Shown: in pieces, positions 44,549 to 53,038 of the stretch | Layout of the letters: the number at the start of each line of letters is the position of its first letter | Numbering within the stretch: position 1 is the stretch's first letter | Assembly: GCA_024408095.1 (NCBI GenBank) | Contig: JAKSVI010000005.1 | Span: forward strand, 1-63,895 | Source of the DNA: Bacilli bacterium | GTDB taxonomy: Bacteria; Bacillota_I; Bacilli_A; RFN20; CAG-826 | Reading direction: 5' to 3' | Length of the DNA: 63,895 nucleotides | Notes under the pieces: generated by a model | What the model was told of the DNA's origin: nothing | The model's input: only the letters and a program-made list of their open reading frames with translations | Databases searched by the model: none | Program-made: the position numbers and the translations under genes

Positions 44549-46300
44549 ATGAATGATGTAACTATAAAACAAAACAAATCAGGTAAGAAAGCAAATTTAC
44601 TTTTTAATAAATTTATTTCTGTTTTTGCGGTAGCTGCTTTTGGATATTTATTCTCGGTTTTCGTTTCTTTTTTTGATTCGATGGTTTCTGGAAATTTGCT
44701 ATCGAGCGAAGCACTTAACGCCGTTCAAATTATTTCGCCAATTTCCAGTTTTATTTCCTTTGTGGCAAATTTAGGTGCTGTTGGAATATCAACGCTATAT
44801 TTTACTTACTTAAATAAAAGTGAAAATAAGAAAGCTAAAAATCTCGCTGGAACTGGCTTAATTTTCACGATTATTATTGGAGCATGTACCTCCCTTTTAT
44901 TATTTTCAATAATGAATCCTTTTATAAATGCTTATGGCCTAAGCCAGGAAGCTCAAGCTTATGCTAGGGATTATTATCTTTGGTATATTGCGCTAGGATT
45001 TTTAATTCCTTTACAAAATTATTTTTATGAATTCATCTCCATGGACTATGATAACAGTCTAAAACTTATTGGAGATTTAGGCTTAGCTATTGTTAAAGTA
45101 GTTCTTTCTTTTATCCTTATTAGAATTTTAGGAATTAACGGATTAGGGCTTGCAACTGTATGCAGTTATGCTTTTTGTTTATTAATTGATTGTCTTCATT
45201 TCTTTAAAAAGAAGAATTCAATACATTTTAGTTTCACCCCCTCCTTTAAAGACTTATGGAAAGGGATACAATTAAGTTTTGGTTCTGCTATAAGTTATTT
45301 ATTATCTGCTGTAGTATCAACGCTAGTAAACTTATTTATTACATCTTTTTTTGGAAGTTCTTATTTAGTTATTATGACAATAATATCTTTTGAAATAAAA
45401 TTAGCAGGAACATTACGTAAGATTCCAACATCAATCAAACCATCAATGACCGCAGCAATAGGTACAAATAATTCTAATGATTTCGATTTATGCCTTTCTA
45501 TTATTAAAAAAACTTTTATTATTTGTACTCCTATCTTAATGGCGATAGTAATGGCTTGCTCTCCTGCAATCAATCTTTTATATCATGTAAATCCAGGTAG
45601 TGAAATTTATTTTCTATGTATCATTGCCTCTTTAGTTACACCAATAACTTTCTTCTGCACGGGTATGGTTAGAACATATTCAACTGTCTATATGACTTTA
45701 GGCAAATCTAGCATTTTTATAATTGATGATATTATTTCTGCAATATTTAAAGTAGGAGTATCGTGTTTATTTGGATATTTATTTGGAATAATTGGTTTTA
45801 TTGTCGGAATGACGGTTTCATATATTGCAACATTTGTTGCGATTACTTTATATATTTATTTTACGAATCATCCACATTGCATATTTAAAAGAATTGAAAC
45901 GGACGAATCCCAACAAAGCTTTGACTTTTATTTAAATGAAGAAAATATTGACTTCTTCATGAATGAATTTTCTCGTTTATTTAAGGACAATGGTGTAAAT
46001 GAAAATTTCACTAATGAATATATTAAGGAAATGGGTGACTTATATAACACTGCGCTTAGTTATAACAAAAATAATAGAGTTATTAATAGAGTGACCATTT
46101 GTATAGGAAATGATTATATTAGAATTTTAAATAAGAATAACGGCGTTTTTATAGCGGAATCAGAAAAAAATAAACACAAAAATAACAAAGAAAAATATCC
46201 ATTAATAAATGCCATTATGGATAAGGAGACATTAGATATGTATTTATCGTCTTCATTAAATTTTGTCGGATTGAAATTTAGAAAAGATATGGTTTATTGA
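44549..46300 (+). CDS. MATE-family efflux transporter with C-terminal soluble domain
   Basis: 12 TM; DSMVSGNLL...ALNAV, GLGLAT; ~140-aa C-terminal tail. Confidence 0.82.
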   Translation: MNDVTIKQNKSGKKANLLFNKFISVFAVAAFGYLFSVFVSFFDSMVSGNLLSSEALNAVQIISPISSFISFVANLGAVGISTLYFTYLNKSENKKAKNLAGTGLIFTIIIGACTSLLLFSIMNPFINAYGLSQEAQAYARDYYLWYIALGFLIPLQNYFYEFISMDYDNSLKLIGDLGLAIVKVVLSFILIRILGINGLGLATVCSYAFCLLIDCLHFFKKKNSIHFSFTPSFKDLWKGIQLSFGSAISYLLSAVVSTLVNLFITSFFGSSYLVIMTIISFEIKLAGTLRKIPTSIKPSMTAAIGTNNSNDFDLCLSIIKKTFIICTPILMAIVMACSPAINLLYHVNPGSEIYFLCIIASLVTPITFFCTGMVRTYSTVYMTLGKSSIFIIDDIISAIFKVGVSCLFGYLFGIIGFIVGMTVSYIATFVAITLYIYFTNHPHCIFKRIETDESQQSFDFYLNEENIDFFMNEFSRLFKDNGVNENFTNEYIKEMGDLYNTALSYNKNNRVINRVTICIGNDYIRILNKNNGVFIAESEKNKHKNNKEKYPLINAIMDKETLDMYLSSSLNFVGLKFRKDMVY

Positions 46301-46443
46301 TTAATTGATAGAACTTAATACAACATTTCATTTCTCTAGTTGCGTTAAGAATTACAATTTATGATTTTTAGAATTTTGAAAAAGGCTATGCCTTTGGGTT
46401 TTTTGTTCTACACTTTTATAATTATTTATAAGATAATAATCGT

Positions 46444-47775
46444 ATGAGATATAAATTAGTTATTTCCTTTCTTCCTTGTATCGCTCTTTCACTTGCTTCT
46501 TGTTCGTCTTATTCGGATTGGAATCAAGTTGGAACTAGTAACACAATTAATTATTGTTTATTAATTGGACAAATAGATCACACCGATTCTTCTGAAACAA
46601 CCGCCGGACTTCGAGAGGCTTTAGGAACAAGAGATCTTGTACATACCAAAATTAATCCAAATACTGAAAATCCTATTGTTAATGAAAATTTTTATACCGA
46701 TTCACATGGAGTTACATATCGACTAGTGGAAATGGAACATGCTGAACAAAAATCAATTTCAGGTGCACCATGGGATCAACAAACTGCTAATGAAACTACG
46801 ACTTTATGGATTAATAAGCATTATGCTAATTCATGGACTGATTTACAAGGCGTAAAAAGAAAAGGTCAATCTATTTCCCTTTTTGTATCTAATAACGATG
46901 GTATGGCGATGGGCGCTATCGGTAGTGTGAGATGGCTAAAGGGAATGCCAATTTTTGGTTATGGTGCTAATAGCGATGCTGTTTTAAAAGTAAAATCAGG
47001 TGAAATGTTTGGAACCCTTGATCCAGGTACAACTGGCCAAGCTGCTGGAATCTATATGGTTTTAAGAAATTTAATCGACCATCCGGAATATACAACTTTA
47101 GAGGCAACCACTCATGGTTTTGGTGAGGAAAATGCAACAAAATTTGGTTATGTAAAAAGTAAATTTGAACCACTTGATGAAGAAACAAATGCAATGCTAA
47201 CCCAAAATGTTCCTGTAACAAAAGAAAATGTCGATCAATTTTATAATAAGTCAATACTTACTAGACTAGAAGAAAATGAAAGAATTGTTAAGGGTGATCA
47301 AACTGAAGAAGCTAAGATTTATCAATCATATTATTCTGGAACGGATAATTTCTTAAATTCATCAATGAAACCACTTTTTGAGAATTTGAAAACTAAATTT
47401 AATTTTGATGTTACCTCTACTTATGGAAATGGTAATGATGAGTCGCAATCACTTGATAATTTAAATACTAACCTAGCAAAAGGAAAATATTTTAAAGCAT
47501 TTGCTATAAATATGGTTAGGACAACATCTGCGAAATTGTATTTAGACGCTATTTATAATATTTATCAAGAAAACGGAATTGTTAATGTACCGGTTATATT
47601 CTGGAATCGTCAGCCAACAAATGAAGTAAATAAGGTTGATATTAAAAGCATGCATGATAAAAGATTTAAAAACATTTTATTTGTTGGATACGCCGCAAGA
47701 CAAGGTGGAAAAATTCAAGGTGAAATGATTAGAGAATATGTAAGAAACACTATTGAGGCAAAGTATGGAAACTAG
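46444..47775 (+). CDS. MglB-like sugar-binding lipoprotein, circularly permuted
   Basis: Lipobox LASC; NNDGMAMGAI and PIFGY (MglB C-half) precede DNF, AFAINMV, VPVIFWNRQP, GKIQGEMI (MglB N-half). Confidence 0.85.
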   Translation: MRYKLVISFLPCIALSLASCSSYSDWNQVGTSNTINYCLLIGQIDHTDSSETTAGLREALGTRDLVHTKINPNTENPIVNENFYTDSHGVTYRLVEMEHAEQKSISGAPWDQQTANETTTLWINKHYANSWTDLQGVKRKGQSISLFVSNNDGMAMGAIGSVRWLKGMPIFGYGANSDAVLKVKSGEMFGTLDPGTTGQAAGIYMVLRNLIDHPEYTTLEATTHGFGEENATKFGYVKSKFEPLDEETNAMLTQNVPVTKENVDQFYNKSILTRLEENERIVKGDQTEEAKIYQSYYSGTDNFLNSSMKPLFENLKTKFNFDVTSTYGNGNDESQSLDNLNTNLAKGKYFKAFAINMVRTTSAKLYLDAIYNIYQENGIVNVPVIFWNRQPTNEVNKVDIKSMHDKRFKNILFVGYAARQGGKIQGEMIREYVRNTIEAKYGN

Positions 47776-49264
47776 TGATGAAATACTCTCGATTGAAGGA
47801 TTATCAAAATCTTTTGGAAACGTCCATGTTTTGAAAAATGTTTCTTTAAAGTTGAAAAAAGGAAGCATTTTAGGCTTGATGGGTGAAAATGGTGCTGGTA
47901 AATCAACTTTAATGAATTGTTTATTTGGTTCATTAAAAATCGATAGTGGGAAAATAATTTATAATAATCGACACGTAACTTTTAAAGGACCAAAAGATGC
48001 CTTAGAGCAAGGAATCACTATGGTTCATCAAGAATTAAATTTGTGCCTTAATCGTTCAATTATGGACAATATGTTCCTTGGAAGATATCCTTCAAAATGG
48101 GGTATTGTTGATAGCAGAACTCTTTATAACAAGTGCGAAGAAATATTTAATTCTTTGTCATTAAATTTTTCTCCTAAAACAATTATGAACACTCTTAGCA
48201 TTAGCGAATGTCAACTTGTTGAAATCGCTAAAGTTATGTCTTATGATGCAAAAGTTATCATCCTAGATGAACCAACTTCATCATTAAGTGATAAAGAAAC
48301 CAAAATACTATTTAATTTAATTAATGATTTAAAAAATAAAGGTGTTAGTTTTATTTTCATCTCTCATAAGATGGAAGAAATTTTCACTCTTTGTGATGAT
48401 ATCCTAGTTTTAAGAGATGGCTTTGTCACATTAAACAAATCAATTAAGGAAACAAATCTTGATGAAGTTGTGACCGCGATGATTGGAAGAAAACTAGAAT
48501 CACGTTTCCCAAAACTTAATAGTGATCTGAAAGAGACCATATTAGAACTTAAAAATCTAACAACCAAATATCCTCCTCAATTAGTGGATATTAATTTTAC
48601 TTTGCATAAAGGTGAAATTTTAGGAGTCTATGGTTTAGTTGGATCAGGAAGAACAAGATTATTATCGACTTTATTTGGCTTAAGAGCGGTCGCTTATGGA
48701 GAGATTATTTTTAATGGCAAAAGAGTAAAGTTTAAAAATAATAGAGATGCAATTAAAAATAATTTTGCTTTCATCAGCGAAGAAAGAAAAGCGACCGGCA
48801 TGTTTGCTAAGCAATCAATTAAATTTAATAACAGTATTACTTACCTAGATAAGTTTTCTCATTTTGGTTTTTTAAGTAATAAAGAAATGAATGAAGCTTC
48901 AGACCGAATGATTGAAGAAATGAAAGTTAAATGCATTGATAGAAATGAAATCATATCTTCATTAAGTGGTGGAAACCAACAAAAAGTAATTATTGGAAAA
49001 TGGCTTCAAAAGAATCCAGATATATTAATTATGGATGAACCAACAAGAGGCATTGATATTATATCAAAATATCAAGTATATGAATTAATTGTTGAATTAA
49101 CTAAACAAGGTAAAGCAGTTATTATTTCTTCAAGTGAAATGCCAGAAATAATGGGAATTACACATAATATTTTAGTTATGTCGAATCACAAAATAGCGGG
49201 AATACTACCCACTAAAGAGGCAAGCGAAGAAAAAATAATCAAGCTTTGTACAAAATATTTATAA
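47765..49264 (+). CDS. mglA: sugar ABC transporter ATP-binding protein (two NBDs)
   Basis: GENGAGKSTL, VHQELN, DEPTSSL, LSGGNQQKV, DEPTRGID. Confidence 0.92.
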   Translation: METSDEILSIEGLSKSFGNVHVLKNVSLKLKKGSILGLMGENGAGKSTLMNCLFGSLKIDSGKIIYNNRHVTFKGPKDALEQGITMVHQELNLCLNRSIMDNMFLGRYPSKWGIVDSRTLYNKCEEIFNSLSLNFSPKTIMNTLSISECQLVEIAKVMSYDAKVIILDEPTSSLSDKETKILFNLINDLKNKGVSFIFISHKMEEIFTLCDDILVLRDGFVTLNKSIKETNLDEVVTAMIGRKLESRFPKLNSDLKETILELKNLTTKYPPQLVDINFTLHKGEILGVYGLVGSGRTRLLSTLFGLRAVAYGEIIFNGKRVKFKNNRDAIKNNFAFISEERKATGMFAKQSIKFNNSITYLDKFSHFGFLSNKEMNEASDRMIEEMKVKCIDRNEIISSLSGGNQQKVIIGKWLQKNPDILIMDEPTRGIDIISKYQVYELIVELTKQGKAVIISSSEMPEIMGITHNILVMSNHKIAGILPTKEASEEKIIKLCTKYL

Positions 49265-49277
49265 TGGGGGTTATTTT

Positions 49278-51080
49278 ATGGACGAAAAAAAGATGGACCT
49301 AATTCAAATTAAAAAGCTAGTGGAATCAACTCATCAAAAATATATAGATGCTAGTATTAAATTTGCAAATAAAGAAATTAGTAAAGAAGAATATAATAAA
49401 GAGCTTCAAAATTTTAATCAAAACAAAAAAGAAATTTTGTCTATAACCCAAGATTTTAATAGTGAAAATTATGACCCCGCTGTTTCTTTTGCTTATGAAG
49501 TTGATATTGAAAAAAATGAAACAGTTAAAAATGAATTAATCAAATTATCTGAACTTAAAAAAGATGGTGAAGATAAGATTAACTCTATTAAAGAAAAAAT
49601 TAGAAATATTCATTTAACTAAAAACATCAAAACAAATGAAAAGAAAGAAATGATTAAACCTCTTAAGGAGGAATTAGAAGCTGCTAAGGTTGTCGCAAAA
49701 GAAAATAAAAAAGCAGTTAAGGAATTATCTACTAAATTAAGATTTATCATTAAAAAATTAGGGAAGATATCTTTCTATTATTCAAAAGTAACTAATAATC
49801 ATAATAAATTTGTGGCTAAAAATACTTTTGATAAGAAAGTAAAAGAAGAAAATGAACAATATCTTTCAAAATCAAAAACTTGTTCAACTAAAAAAGAAAA
49901 ACGTATTTTAAAAGGCGAACATAATTCGAAACTCAGTGAATATCGACGCGATTATAAAATGGTTAATGCCAACTGTCATGAAGAAATAGAAAGCGCCTTC
50001 ATGAAAGTTTATTCCTTAATTAAAAAAATAAATAATGGATATTCTTTAGAAGATAAAATAAATGTTAAATTGTTTGAATTTAAGCATAATTTTGATTTGG
50101 CTATTTTCTTAAGAAAATATTCATTATATTTTGTTATTCTTATTTTCTTTATCATCTGTGCGATTATCGCCGAATATCAAGGCAACCCCTTATTAACATT
50201 TAGAACAATTGAAACAATCTGTATTCAATCATCTACAAAAGTATTCTTTTCTTTAGGTGTTGCTGGTCTAATCCTTATTGGTGGAACAGACTTATCAATT
50301 GGTCGTATGACTGGTATGGCGGCGACATTCTCTTGTTTGTTTTTATCTCAACTCGTATTTGAAACAAATATTGGAACATTAGATATGATAATGCCCCAAG
50401 CACTCGCAATCTTTTTAGGTATGCTTGTTTGTATTTTCTCTACAACTTTATTTTCTTCTATCGCTGGATTTTTTACCGCTAAACTTAAGATCCATCCATT
50501 TATTACTACATTAGCTACTCAATTATTAATTTATGGTTTAATGATGGTTTGTTTCTCTCAAGTTCCTGCCTTTACAATGAACTCCGATATTAAAATTGGT
50601 ATTACTGGTGAATTTGGTTGGAAATTAGTTATTTATGCAGTTATCGCTATTATTCTAGTTTGGTTAATTTGGAATAAAACAAAATTTGGAAAACATATGT
50701 ACGCAGTTGGCGATAATAAACAAGCCGCTAAAGTAAGTGGAATTAATGTTTTCTGGGTGACTATGGGAGTATTTATTTTAGCTGGTGTTCTTTATGGTGT
50801 TGGTGGATTCTTAGAAGGTGCTCGTATTGGTAATGCTAATCCATCAACTGGTTTAGGTACTGAATTAGATGCTATTGCTGCCTGTGTTATTGGTGGTATT
50901 TCATTTAGTGGTGGTAAAGGAAAAGTTAGCGGTGCCGTTATTGGTACAATTGTTTTCTCTATACTATCTTATTGTTTAACATATATTGGTCTAGATATAA
51001 ATTACCAATTTATTTTTAAAGGAGTAATTATTTTAGCTGCTATTTGTTTTGATTCACTTAAATTTCTTCAAAAAGAGTAG
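49278..51080 (+). CDS. mglC: sugar ABC transporter permease with N-terminal coiled-coil extension
   Basis: GTDLSIGR, IHPFITTLATQ, TKFGKHMYAVG.N..AA..SG, ELDAIAACVIGG. Confidence 0.88.
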   Translation: MDEKKMDLIQIKKLVESTHQKYIDASIKFANKEISKEEYNKELQNFNQNKKEILSITQDFNSENYDPAVSFAYEVDIEKNETVKNELIKLSELKKDGEDKINSIKEKIRNIHLTKNIKTNEKKEMIKPLKEELEAAKVVAKENKKAVKELSTKLRFIIKKLGKISFYYSKVTNNHNKFVAKNTFDKKVKEENEQYLSKSKTCSTKKEKRILKGEHNSKLSEYRRDYKMVNANCHEEIESAFMKVYSLIKKINNGYSLEDKINVKLFEFKHNFDLAIFLRKYSLYFVILIFFIICAIIAEYQGNPLLTFRTIETICIQSSTKVFFSLGVAGLILIGGTDLSIGRMTGMAATFSCLFLSQLVFETNIGTLDMIMPQALAIFLGMLVCIFSTTLFSSIAGFFTAKLKIHPFITTLATQLLIYGLMMVCFSQVPAFTMNSDIKIGITGEFGWKLVIYAVIAIILVWLIWNKTKFGKHMYAVGDNKQAAKVSGINVFWVTMGVFILAGVLYGVGGFLEGARIGNANPSTGLGTELDAIAACVIGGISFSGGKGKVSGAVIGTIVFSILSYCLTYIGLDINYQFIFKGVIILAAICFDSLKFLQKE

Positions 51081-51256
51081 CGTTTAACTTTATAGGTACA
51101 TTAGTTTTTGTTGAATTTATCGTTATGGTTAGAAGATGATATTGCCGTGTTAAAGTGGTATTTCATACTCCGAATTCATCTACAAAGGTCAATTGCTTTA
51201 AAATAATGCAATTTTATAAAACATTTGTTGTAAAATACAATTGTAGGTAATCTATT

Positions 51257-53038
51257 ATGTCAAAGAAGAAAATATTATTTCCAATTTCATTAGTGATAGC
51301 TACTGCTGTTGGAAGTTTTTCACTAATGGGGTGTCAGAAGATTATTAGCGCTGACACAGTTATTTATGGAACCATAATGACTGCAAACACAAATAATCCT
51401 ACTGCTACAGCCATTGCCATTAAAGATGGTAAATACATTTATGTTGGCGATGAGAATGGTGTTAAACCATATATTGACTCTAATGGAACAAATATCGTTG
51501 ATCACCGTGGAAAAGGAATGGTTATGCCAGGCTGTACTGATGGTCATTCTCATTACACCATGAAATTTGGTATGGAAAAAATGAAGGGTGGCATCATGTT
51601 TGATCTCAAAGATGATAAGGCCTCTGTTTTATCAAAACTGAATGCCGCTACTCTTAAAGCTAAACAAGCAGGAAAAAAGACACTTTTTGGTTTTGGTTGG
51701 AACTATGTAGCTCTTACAAATGATCCTCCAACATTACGCGAACTTGACGATAATAGTAATGGAATATCCATAATAATTTTTGATCAAGGTGGACATCATG
51801 CCTTTTGTAATTCAGAGTGTTTAAGAAGAAGTGGAATCATCGATGGTAAGGGTGGAGTACTTATTACTAAGATTGATGGTGGATTTCTTGAGTTAGATAA
51901 AAATGGATATCCAACTGGATACGCTGAAGAACGTGTAACGGGTTATATGATGCGTAATGGTGGAATTGACTATAACGAACTTATTGATGACGAAGTCGCA
52001 GCAGCTTCAATTCTTGATACACAAAATTTATTACTTTCTACAGGATATACAATGGCGTTAGATGGATGGAGTAATATGTTTCATCCAACTAAACTATATG
52101 AGGCTGCTAATCGTTTAGATGTCGGAGGATATCTTAAGATTGTTTTCCCTATGACATATGAAGTTGAACCATGGCAAAAGAATATCAGTGATGAAATTAC
52201 TACATTAGTTAATCTAAAAAAAGATTATGCAACAAAACACGTACTTTTAGATTATTTGAAATTATTTATGGATGGCGTCGTAGAAACAAAAACTGGTGCG
52301 ATGATGATACCTTATAAAGATGGCACAGATTATAAGAGCTTTTGGTCAGTAGACCGTTTGTCAGACATAACTCGTGAATGTAACTCTAAAGGCGTTACTG
52401 TCCATGCACACGTAATGGGCGATGCCGCAATTAAAGAGACTACAGATGCTTATATACAAGGCGGAGATAAAATACATCGAAACGCTATGGTTCACTTACG
52501 TAATGTACGAGAAGAAGATTTTGAGCGTATTGCTAAAAATAATATTGCATGTAGTGCTGGTATCACATGGCATGTTGATGGCGGTGAAGGATCATATGAA
52601 TATTTTTCTAAGTTTTTAGATGATAAATATATAAACCATTCATATCCAATAAAATCTTTCTTTAATGCCGGAGTAAAGGTGTCTAGCCATTCAGATTTCC
52701 CTGCTAATAATCCTTCTCCTCAAGATCCTTTTGGAATTATATCTATTGGTGTTACAGGTCAAATGATAGATTCTAATACAGGAAAAATGCTTCCAGTATA
52801 CGATAAAGATGAATTGATTAGTGTTGAACAAGCTTTTGAAGCATTAACTATTAATGGTGCTTGGCAACTTGGATTAGAAAAAGAACGCGGCAGTATTGAA
52901 GTTGGTAAATACGCTGACTTTGTATTAGCTGATAAGGATATATTTACTTGTGAAGCTTCTGAAATAGGTAACACAAAGGTCGTTTCTACATGGTTTGAAG
53001 GCAAAAATGTATTTACCGCAAAACCTAATGTTAATTAA
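51257..53038 (+). CDS. amidohydrolase-3 (YtcJ-like) metallohydrolase, predicted lipoprotein
   Basis: Lipobox LMGC, PGCTDGHSH, KLFMDG, HAHVMGD, TINGAWQLG.....GSIEVGKYAD. Confidence 0.9.
   Translation: MSKKKILFPISLVIATAVGSFSLMGCQKIISADTVIYGTIMTANTNNPTATAIAIKDGKYIYVGDENGVKPYIDSNGTNIVDHRGKGMVMPGCTDGHSHYTMKFGMEKMKGGIMFDLKDDKASVLSKLNAATLKAKQAGKKTLFGFGWNYVALTNDPPTLRELDDNSNGISIIIFDQGGHHAFCNSECLRRSGIIDGKGGVLITKIDGGFLELDKNGYPTGYAEERVTGYMMRNGGIDYNELIDDEVAAASILDTQNLLLSTGYTMALDGWSNMFHPTKLYEAANRLDVGGYLKIVFPMTYEVEPWQKNISDEITTLVNLKKDYATKHVLLDYLKLFMDGVVETKTGAMMIPYKDGTDYKSFWSVDRLSDITRECNSKGVTVHAHVMGDAAIKETTDAYIQGGDKIHRNAMVHLRNVREEDFERIAKNNIACSAGITWHVDGGEGSYEYFSKFLDDKYINHSYPIKSFFNAGVKVSSHSDFPANNPSPQDPFGIISIGVTGQMIDSNTGKMLPVYDKDELISVEQAFEALTINGAWQLGLEKERGSIEVGKYADFVLADKDIFTCEASEIGNTKVVSTWFEGKNVFTAKPNVN

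Follow-up and report, generated by a model that had tools for sequence, protein, structure and literature searches.

A 63,895-nucleotide stretch of Bacilli bacterium DNA (assembly GCA_024408095.1, contig JAKSVI010000005.1; the whole stretch is called the window here) carries a gene for an MglB-like sugar-binding lipoprotein whose chain seems to have been re-ordered twice. Relative to E. coli MglB this protein, the window protein, is a circular permutant. By sequence comparison it belongs to the lineage of TpMglB-2 (Tp0684), a naturally circularly permuted glucose-binding lipoprotein of Treponema pallidum described by Brautigam et al in 2016 (PMC4990184), and yet is permuted again relative to TpMglB-2. 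Natural permutation of MglB has been known since that paper, and the order in the window is a second one, which we could not find described: the open literature yielded only the 2016 TpMglB-2 paper and its citations, with subscription-only papers outside the search. Taken as a whole, the open reading frame (ORF) at 46444-47775 very probably encodes a functional, membrane-anchored binding lipoprotein of a CUT2 (MglBAC-type) sugar ATP-binding cassette (ABC) importer, with a doubly re-ordered chain.

Chain order relative to canonical MglB

The gene and its parts are as follows, with residue numbers counted from the start codon.

46444..47775, + strand: ORF for the permuted MglB-like substrate-binding lipoprotein, complete at 443 amino acids plus stop, with an ATG start and no interruption
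46444..46503, + strand: residues 1-20, predicted signal peptide and lipobox L-A-S-C, with Cys20 as the putative lipidated residue; from the sequence, with a predicted local distance difference test score (pLDDT) <50 at residues 1-23
46504..46542, + strand: residues 21-33, tether and remnant of the former Ca2+ (EF-like) C-lobe loop, the new N-terminus; family consensus WSWxxAxxDxxLNY
46543..47079, + strand: residues 34-212, corresponding to canonical MglB ~141-278; remainder of the C lobe, followed by hinge 2 and the beginning of the second N-lobe segment
46597..46599, + strand: codon of T52, at the position of the sugar contact E. coli R158 / Tp R95; from the family alignment and the residue table of PMC4990184
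46963..46965, + strand: codon of G174, which stands where E. coli has D236 and Tp has D195; from the same alignment and table
47023..47025, + strand: codon of P194, which stands where E. coli has N256 and Tp has Q215; from the same alignment and table
47080..47310, + strand: residues 213-289, canonical C-terminal segment and the connector ("fourth hinge") that links the old C-terminus to the old N-terminus
47311..47565, + strand: residues 290-374, N-lobe strand 1 to helix 3, corresponding to canonical MglB ~1-80, with D301 and F303; from the PF18610 match and the HMMER alignment to 5kws chain 7-131
47566..47772, + strand: residues 375-443, rejoined helix 3-strand 4 linker, N-lobe strand 4 (VPVIFWNRQ, with N388), hinge 1 and first C-lobe helix

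HMMER aligned the window protein to the canonical glucose/galactose-binding protein (GGBP) 5kws in two pieces whose order is exchanged: residues 289-432 fell on chain 7-131 (independent E value 2.9e-6) and residues 139-211 on chain 204-278 (2e-6). BLASTP against the canonical MglB-like lipoprotein of another locus, L046, placed 297-435 on 32-148 (E 1.8e-8) and 141-213 on 223-302 (E 6.8e-6). In Pfam, Peripla_BP_4 (PF13407) scored 45.3 bits against a cut-off of 35.1 bits, with only profile positions 119-255 matching in one piece, at residues 30-212, and PF18610 (Peripla_BP_7), a family that goes back to TpMglB-2, matched residues 291-363 with 41.8 bits against a cut-off of 36.8 bits. The NCBIfam MglB equivalog NF011924 gave 73.4 bits against a cut-off of 420 bits, in two stretches and with no collinear full-length match. 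Since the halves come in swapped order with HMMER, BLASTP and Pfam alike, the window protein is permuted relative to E. coli MglB.

The original prediction had made this claim from short motifs, pairing the first part of the protein with the second half of MglB and the last part with the first half, and the three methods bear it out. Every motif that it quoted is present in the translation: INYCLLIGQIDHTD at 35-48, PWDQQTA at 109-115, NNDGMAMGAI at 150-159 and VTKENVDQF at 258-266, followed by TDNF at 300-303, AFAINMV at 352-358, VPVIFWNRQP at 382-391 and GKIQGEMI at 422-429. It had also described a single ORF within an intact mglBAC-like operon, in agreement with the best equivalog matches to MglA and MglC directly downstream. 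The junction that it placed at 47270-47320 falls at the end of the connector segment, 47080..47310. The core of its proposal, a natural permutant with the lipid anchor at a different point on the fold, is supported.

Residues 1-20 (MRYKLVISFLPCIALSLASC) fit the bacterial lipoprotein lipobox pattern [LVI][ASTVI][GAS]C, and Cys20 is invariant across an alignment of 40 homologues. The segment at 34-212, which holds H46, D48, W110 and N150/N151, was placed by the Peripla_BP_4 profile (119-255) and by HMMER against GGBP chains 200-278. The connector at 213-289 is common to TpMglB-2: the HMMER alignment with 5jx2 passes straight through it, and pLDDT there is 84-97. The last block, 375-443, is the N-terminus in TpMglB-2 and the C-terminus in the window protein.

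The canonical MglB/GGBP proteins of E. coli, Salmonella and Yersinia (2FVY, 2GBP, 3GBP, 5KWS) resemble the window protein in their two-lobed fold, in the logic of the mglBAC operon and in the type of sugar pocket, where the equivalents of N91, H152, D154, W183, N211, D14 and F16 are all kept. The window protein differs from them in its swapped halves, in an extra connector of ~60-75 amino acids, in having a lipid anchor instead of being free, in the lack of the Ca2+ loop, and in the replacement of the equivalents of R158, D236 and N256.

Engineered circular permutants of periplasmic binding proteins serve as biosensors. They follow the same principle, in that the old termini are joined, the new termini lie in a surface loop, and the fold and its ligand-induced closure are kept, but they are laboratory constructs, while the window protein is natural, conserved, lipid-anchored and operon-encoded. 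The original prediction held that permuted binding proteins are mostly engineered, and in this it overlooked the natural TpMglB-2 (PDB 5JX2/6BGC), published in 2016 (PMC4990184).

A second permutation relative to TpMglB-2

The best solved relatives of the window protein are the TpMglB-2 structures 5jx2, 6bgc and 6bgd (E 6.5e-39 with HMMER), at an identity of only ~27-32%. Against 5jx2, HMMER aligned residues 22-369 to Tp chain 77-384 and residues 381-435 to Tp chain 21-74, and the block of ~55-60 amino acids that opens TpMglB-2 (strand 4, hinge, first C-lobe helix) thereby closes the window protein. BLASTP found the same swap against the Tp-type protein of Treponema bryantii, with 34-370 on 99-398 and 383-440 on 35-91, and against the protein of locus L041, where residues 377-439 fell on 33-95 with 51% identity.

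In mature TpMglB-2, N-lobe strand 4 (PLVFFNRQ) comes first, then the hinge, the first C-lobe helix and the Ca2+ loop (DRNGDG), and the chain ends in N-lobe helix 3. The mature window protein begins immediately ahead of where the Ca2+ loop used to be, and its last element is the first C-lobe helix. The connection between helix 3 and strand 4, where TpMglB-2 has its chain ends, is continuous in the window protein. The two proteins are alike in being lipoproteins, in having the canonical termini joined by the same connector (the PF18610 region), in four inter-lobe crossings, in the mglA and N-terminally extended mglC that follow, and in the identity of 7/10 glucose-contact residues. They are unlike in that the EF-like Ca2+ loop of the window protein is degenerate and three contact residues are replaced. 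The window protein lacks the EF-loop motif D-x-[DNS]-x-[DN]-G-x-[IVLM], which is present in all 46 of 46 Tp-type proteins, in none of the seven proteins of a group called the bridge clade below (0/7), and in 9/164 proteins that share the chain order of the window protein (window-type). Of the features of the TpMglB-2 class, the window protein has the connector, and lacks the termini on the N lobe and the EF loop. The class is also marked by D-glucose binding with ligand-induced closure, and the replaced residues speak against the same specificity in the window protein.

An AlphaFold2 model built with 40 homologues had a pLDDT of 90.9 and a predicted TM-score (pTM) of 0.87 and was confident through both junction regions, and the order of its secondary-structure elements fits a second permutation. 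Foldseek with this model ranked TpMglB-2 first (E 3e-20, TM 0.72, 356 columns), while canonical GGBP aligned over ~241 columns only; TpMglB-2, GGBP and many other CUT2 binding proteins were among the matches, as expected of a two-lobed alpha/beta fold. No solved protein was collinear with the window protein. The fifth-best match, PDB 5ER3 (E 7e-9), a solute-binding protein of Rhodopirellula baltica from structural genomics, has an identity of only 13% and falls into another CUT2 subfamily.

Homology to 5JX2 and the order of secondary-structure elements suggest that both termini lie on the C lobe, between the first helix and the former Ca2+ loop. The lipidated Cys20 would tether the protein to the membrane, with the anchor hanging from the tip of the C lobe. 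The chain would cross between the lobes four times, with the canonical termini joined by the TpMglB-2-type connector, and the two-lobed "Venus fly-trap" would hand its ligand to the MglC/MglA encoded immediately downstream. Two points weigh against this picture: the placement of the termini on the C lobe comes from homology and element order rather than from measured distances, and proteins with the window order are known from sequence and predicted models alone.

Bridge clade and origin of the window order

The bridge clade (L041/P0109 and P0121-P0127) consists of uncharacterised lipoproteins from Bacilli metagenome-assembled genomes (MAGs) that have the Tp order; BLASTP found a bridge-clade protein collinear with the T. 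bryantii protein over 38-422. For these proteins, identity is 49-57% to the window type but only ~35% to the Tp type, and no closer relatives with another chain order were found. With the window type they have in common the operon and a degenerate Ca2+ loop that carries a W-rich motif; the chain order sets them apart. One member comes from the taxonomic order of the window genome, from a genus that also holds window-type proteins. Window-, bridge- and Tp-type proteins were all seen within one genus of that order, coded g39, in different species (genomes G070, which is that of L041, G081, G090 and G120).

Trees were made from sequences that had all been rotated to a common start, with canonical proteins as the root. 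In these trees the Tp-order proteins are basal, and the bridge clade and the window type form one clade with 100% support. The basal branches of the permuted lineage mostly have the Tp order and keep the Ca2+ loop.

Two places in the chains read as scars. The internal loop of the bridge clade, ...DYLAAQEEANTDWWQHAIEDGKLTY, corresponds to the window-type C-terminus (..DFLAAQEKLAK*) plus the mature window-type N-terminus (C-GGSTAWDAKKAFSDKELNY). Conversely, the window-type link between helix 3 and strand 4, YLDKIYTIEG-GTGTVSK-PVIFYNRQ, corresponds to the bridge C-terminus YLNQIYNIEG* plus a tether (C-GGG...QS-PVIF) and the first strand. This window-type link is ~9 residues longer than the canonical one and rich in T, A and G, and a lengthened, tether-like link is consistent with tandem Tp-order copies having fused in frame. 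The most likely origin would be duplication, fusion and trimming of a TpMglB-2-type gene: a tandem duplication, followed by in-frame fusion and then by trimming of both ends. Tandem window-type paralogues, which could feed such events, were found at L001, L037, L038 and L040.

We consider it rather unlikely, and still the strongest of the alternatives, that the change ran in the other direction, with the window order older and the bridge clade reverted, or with both trimmed from one double-length fused ancestor. Several observations lean that way and so count against duplication and trimming from a Tp-order gene. The bridge clade is nested inside the window-type clade in free trees. When constrained and free IQ-TREE searches were compared on 48 rows, forcing the window type to be monophyletic cost only 0.9-1.5 units of log-likelihood (approximately unbiased (AU) test, p 0.49), so the direction from Tp order to window order is not proven. 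The tandem window-type paralogues just named could also be substrate for a reversion, and topology has switched repeatedly elsewhere in the family.

The original prediction had proposed a survey for a duplication intermediate. Among 321 sequences, no member of the permuted lineage was a partly duplicated intermediate, and the survey turned up double-length proteins of canonical type only. P0190 (L088, 256-2271) is a 671-amino-acid lipoprotein made of two complete canonical MglB copies head to tail, encoded on a single 4.2-kb contig, and P0235 (631 amino acids) is a canonical-type protein that repeats part of the fold. With P0190, the duplication-fusion state predicted by the duplication model of circular permutation therefore exists. 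It is also what a double-length fused ancestor would look like, but it is canonical-type, distant and known from that one contig only. The same AU result (p 0.49) leaves window-type monophyly unrejected, and a single switch is the more parsimonious account. Together with the mostly Tp-order basal branches that keep the Ca2+ loop, and with the tether-like insert in the window-type helix 3-strand 4 link, this argues for duplication, fusion and trimming of a Tp-order gene.

Series of permuted topologies across the family

When 1.84 billion representative proteins were searched exhaustively, 172 matched, and these were mapped on a 397-position profile of the rotated family. The chain ends fell at the following places, counted in clusters at 50% identity.

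Tp-type: reference position ~1, 15 clusters
Window-type: reference position ~65, 17 clusters
C-type: reference position ~143, 2 clusters (P0168, P0176)
D-type: reference position ~168, 1 cluster (P0211, which is NCBI MCL1944805.1)
E-type: reference position ~212, 2 clusters (P0155, P0160), with a start at GTVSQN and an end after FGYDAN..
Canonical: reference position ~300, 21 clusters, the sampling having covered the nearest canonical clusters only

The termini of the window protein itself map at ~65 and those of TpMglB-2 at ~1. A lipobox-like Cys lies near the N-terminus in all full-length representatives but three (one window-type, two canonical), and the rare types recur on many long contigs, in normal binding-protein/ATPase/permease operons. 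The E-type protein P0155 is very close to TpMglB-2 (E 1e-133), yet permuted relative to it. The window order also occurs in Tp-like sequence backgrounds, in P0145, P0161, P0183 and P0198. A single clade was rejected by AU tests for all window-order proteins (difference in log-likelihood 239, p 0.0002), and likewise for the E-type (p 0.03) and the C-type (p 0.01). The groups were named after the tree had been seen and the tree searches were quick, so the number of independent switch events is provisional.

The MglB/TpMglB-2 lineage is probably a natural "circular-permutation series". It would have six or more places for the termini, several of them reached independently more than once, with the permuted protein often beside a canonical paralogue serving the same permease. 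The window type would be its most diverse topology, with termini on the opposite lobe from those of TpMglB-2.

P0152 (365 amino acids) had been considered as a further topology that lacks one beta-alpha unit. Its cluster at 90% identity has members of 413 amino acids, and its start was probably mis-called.

Ahead of the E-type locus L085 (637-3784) come an AraC-type response regulator and a dCache histidine kinase, and a canonical binding protein follows them. Regulator and kinase together resemble a two-component system that senses sugar and is coupled to the transporter.

Sugar pocket and likely ligand

Ten residues contact glucose or galactose according to the table in PMC4990184: D14, F16, N91, H152, D154, R158, W183, N211, D236 and N256. 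Seven of the ten are kept in the window protein, as D301, F303, N388, H46, D48, W110 and N151. The equivalents of R158, D236 and N256 are T52, G174 and P194, a combination seen in the window protein and eight close relatives only; the other 217 of 226 sequences have R, D and Q/N at these positions. In GGBP, R158 and D236 bond the C2 and C3 hydroxyls of the sugar (PMC5101532), and in TpMglB-2 the D195A mutation abolishes glucose binding, with no binding heat (PMC4990184).

Because three contacts are replaced while the gene is under purifying selection, we infer a changed specificity. Plain glucose or galactose is probably not the ligand, which may possibly be a hexose modified at C2/C3, or a glycoside. 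This suggestion is drawn from residue identity.

The same three replacements would also be seen in a decaying or non-transport paralogue, since they include the Asp whose mutation kills glucose binding in TpMglB-2. In a horse-gut MAG (L001), moreover, a standard-pocket paralogue (R/D/Q) stands in tandem with an altered-pocket one before mglA; the window genome has the altered one only. Decay nonetheless seems improbable. The ratio of nonsynonymous to synonymous substitution rates (dN/dS) is 0.10-0.20 against orthologues, and the replacements are retained in nine sequences down to 79% identity. The gene is translationally coupled to mglA and encodes the sole Peripla_BP_4-type binding protein found in the window genome, which is 83% complete. 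The seven kept contacts include both stacking aromatics.

Conservation and the described subclass

Homologues with the same chain order are widespread. A total of 539 homologous clusters at 90% identity were found, of which the first ~100 are collinear over 96-100% of the window protein. More than 130 full-length homologues have the window order and come from independent assemblies of gut Bacilli. Among 80 fetched loci of species representatives, 42 have the window order, all from Bacilli-type gut MAGs. In the homologues inspected, the lipobox is followed by WSW..LNYxLLIGQIDH, and the chain ends in ..VPVIFWNRQ..YYVGFDAxQGGxLQGxMI. The original prediction had named a collinear full-length alignment to a known family as a sign against permutation; such alignments were found with these uncharacterised metagenomic homologues only, and with no characterised or solved protein.

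The window genome is a 65-contig draft of 1.11 Mb with ~30% G+C, whose nearest relatives are gut MAGs labelled "Bacilli bacterium" and "uncultured Mollicutes". Within its taxonomic order the gene is patchy, present in 13/121 genomes. A gene of 93% identity lies in the same three-gene operon on another contig (L090).

The 2016 paper proposed the subclass "Type Ic / Cluster Bc", with homologues of the same topology in treponemes and Gram-positives (PMC4990184). It is very improbable that the window protein is an ordinary Type Ic member, with the topology of TpMglB-2 and nothing beyond that description. TpMglB-2 is indeed its best match in sequence and fold, the Pfam pair PF13407 + PF18610 is the same, and a lipoprotein followed by mglA and an extended mglC is what Tp-type loci have. 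The alignments to 5jx2, to the T. bryantii protein and to L041 are nevertheless in two swapped pieces, and the termini map at reference ~65 rather than ~1. The 2016 survey, for its part, retained only matches with >90% coverage and N-termini matching those of TpMglB-2 (PMC4990184).

More improbable still is an error of assembly or gene calling in this MAG as the source of the permuted order. In its favour stands the draft state of the genome, with 65 contigs and 83% completeness. Against it, hundreds of collinear homologues come from independent samples and assemblers, so that mis-assembly is very unlikely, the 93%-identical copy has the same neighbours, the lipobox lies directly at the new N-terminus, the gene end overlaps mglA, the AlphaFold2 model is confident across both junctions, and dN/dS is low.

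Operon and neighbourhood

The binding-protein gene is followed by the two other genes of an mglBAC-like operon, and other genes flank the operon on both sides.

47765..49264, + strand: mglA-like fused double ABC ATPase, with ATG at 47765 and an 11-nt overlap with the binding-protein gene; an alternative TTG lies upstream at 47753
49278..51080, + strand: mglC-like permease of 600 amino acids, with a K/E-rich N-terminal extension of ~270 amino acids
42085-44415, upstream of the operon: beta-glucosidase-like GH3 glycosidase (N, C and Fn3-like domains)
44549-46300, upstream of the operon: MATE-like membrane protein of 583 amino acids
51257-53038, downstream of the operon: Amidohydro_3 lipoprotein

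The binding protein is thus encoded with a fused double ATPase and a permease whose best NCBIfam matches are the MglA (615 bits) and MglC (268 bits) equivalogs, both scores being under the equivalog cut-offs. The same 11-nt overlap with mglA is present in L090.

E. coli MglC has 336 amino acids. The extension of the window MglC (residues 1-270) had no Pfam match. In every permuted-MglB locus fetched, Tp-type or window-type (for example L001, L003, L041 and L064), MglC is extended by 180-390 amino acids, and BLASTP finds weak similarity among these extensions (1e-4 to 1e-10).

In the window-type loci L002, L003, L005, L006, L010 and L011, the permuted gene is immediately preceded by one for a canonical-order MglB-like lipoprotein, and a single mglA-mglC pair follows the two. 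The same pairing was seen in L046 (Tp-type) and L085 (E-type). In these paired loci, one permease is apparently shared by two binding proteins that differ in topology.

The flanking GH3 and MATE genes are not conserved beside the operon in the closest relatives (L090, L001). Since the GH3, MATE and Amidohydro_3 surroundings are not conserved in these loci, the three-gene transporter behaves as a movable cassette. The GH3 gene was considered as a clue to a beta-glucoside ligand and set aside as weak speculation, its neighbourhood not being conserved in L090 or L001. Promoter-like sites in 46200-51400 were no commoner than in shuffled sequence. The sole result of the promoter/terminator scan of this region was a terminator-like hairpin at 46381-46395, 3' of the upstream MATE-like gene, which was not used in the conclusions.

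Significance

To our knowledge, natural circular permutations are rare, and a family usually shows only one such event. In this lineage a single well-understood fold, with known structures, ligand contacts and mechanics, has at least six placements of its termini, some of them recurrent. Close relatives that differ only in chain order, such as P0155 and TpMglB-2, are a natural experiment on the evolution of protein topology. They bear on the choice of loops that can accept chain ends, on the course of duplication, fusion and trimming in real genomes, and on whether docking to the permease depends on the position of the tether. The 2016 "Type Ic" subclass is not one topology, and annotation with collinear hidden Markov models (Pfam, NCBIfam) under-describes permuted binding proteins. 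Biosensor engineering may find here permutation sites already validated by evolution. For the host, the window operon encodes the only CUT2 sugar importer detected in a reduced genome of ~1.1 Mb, with a binding pocket that appears to have been remodelled.

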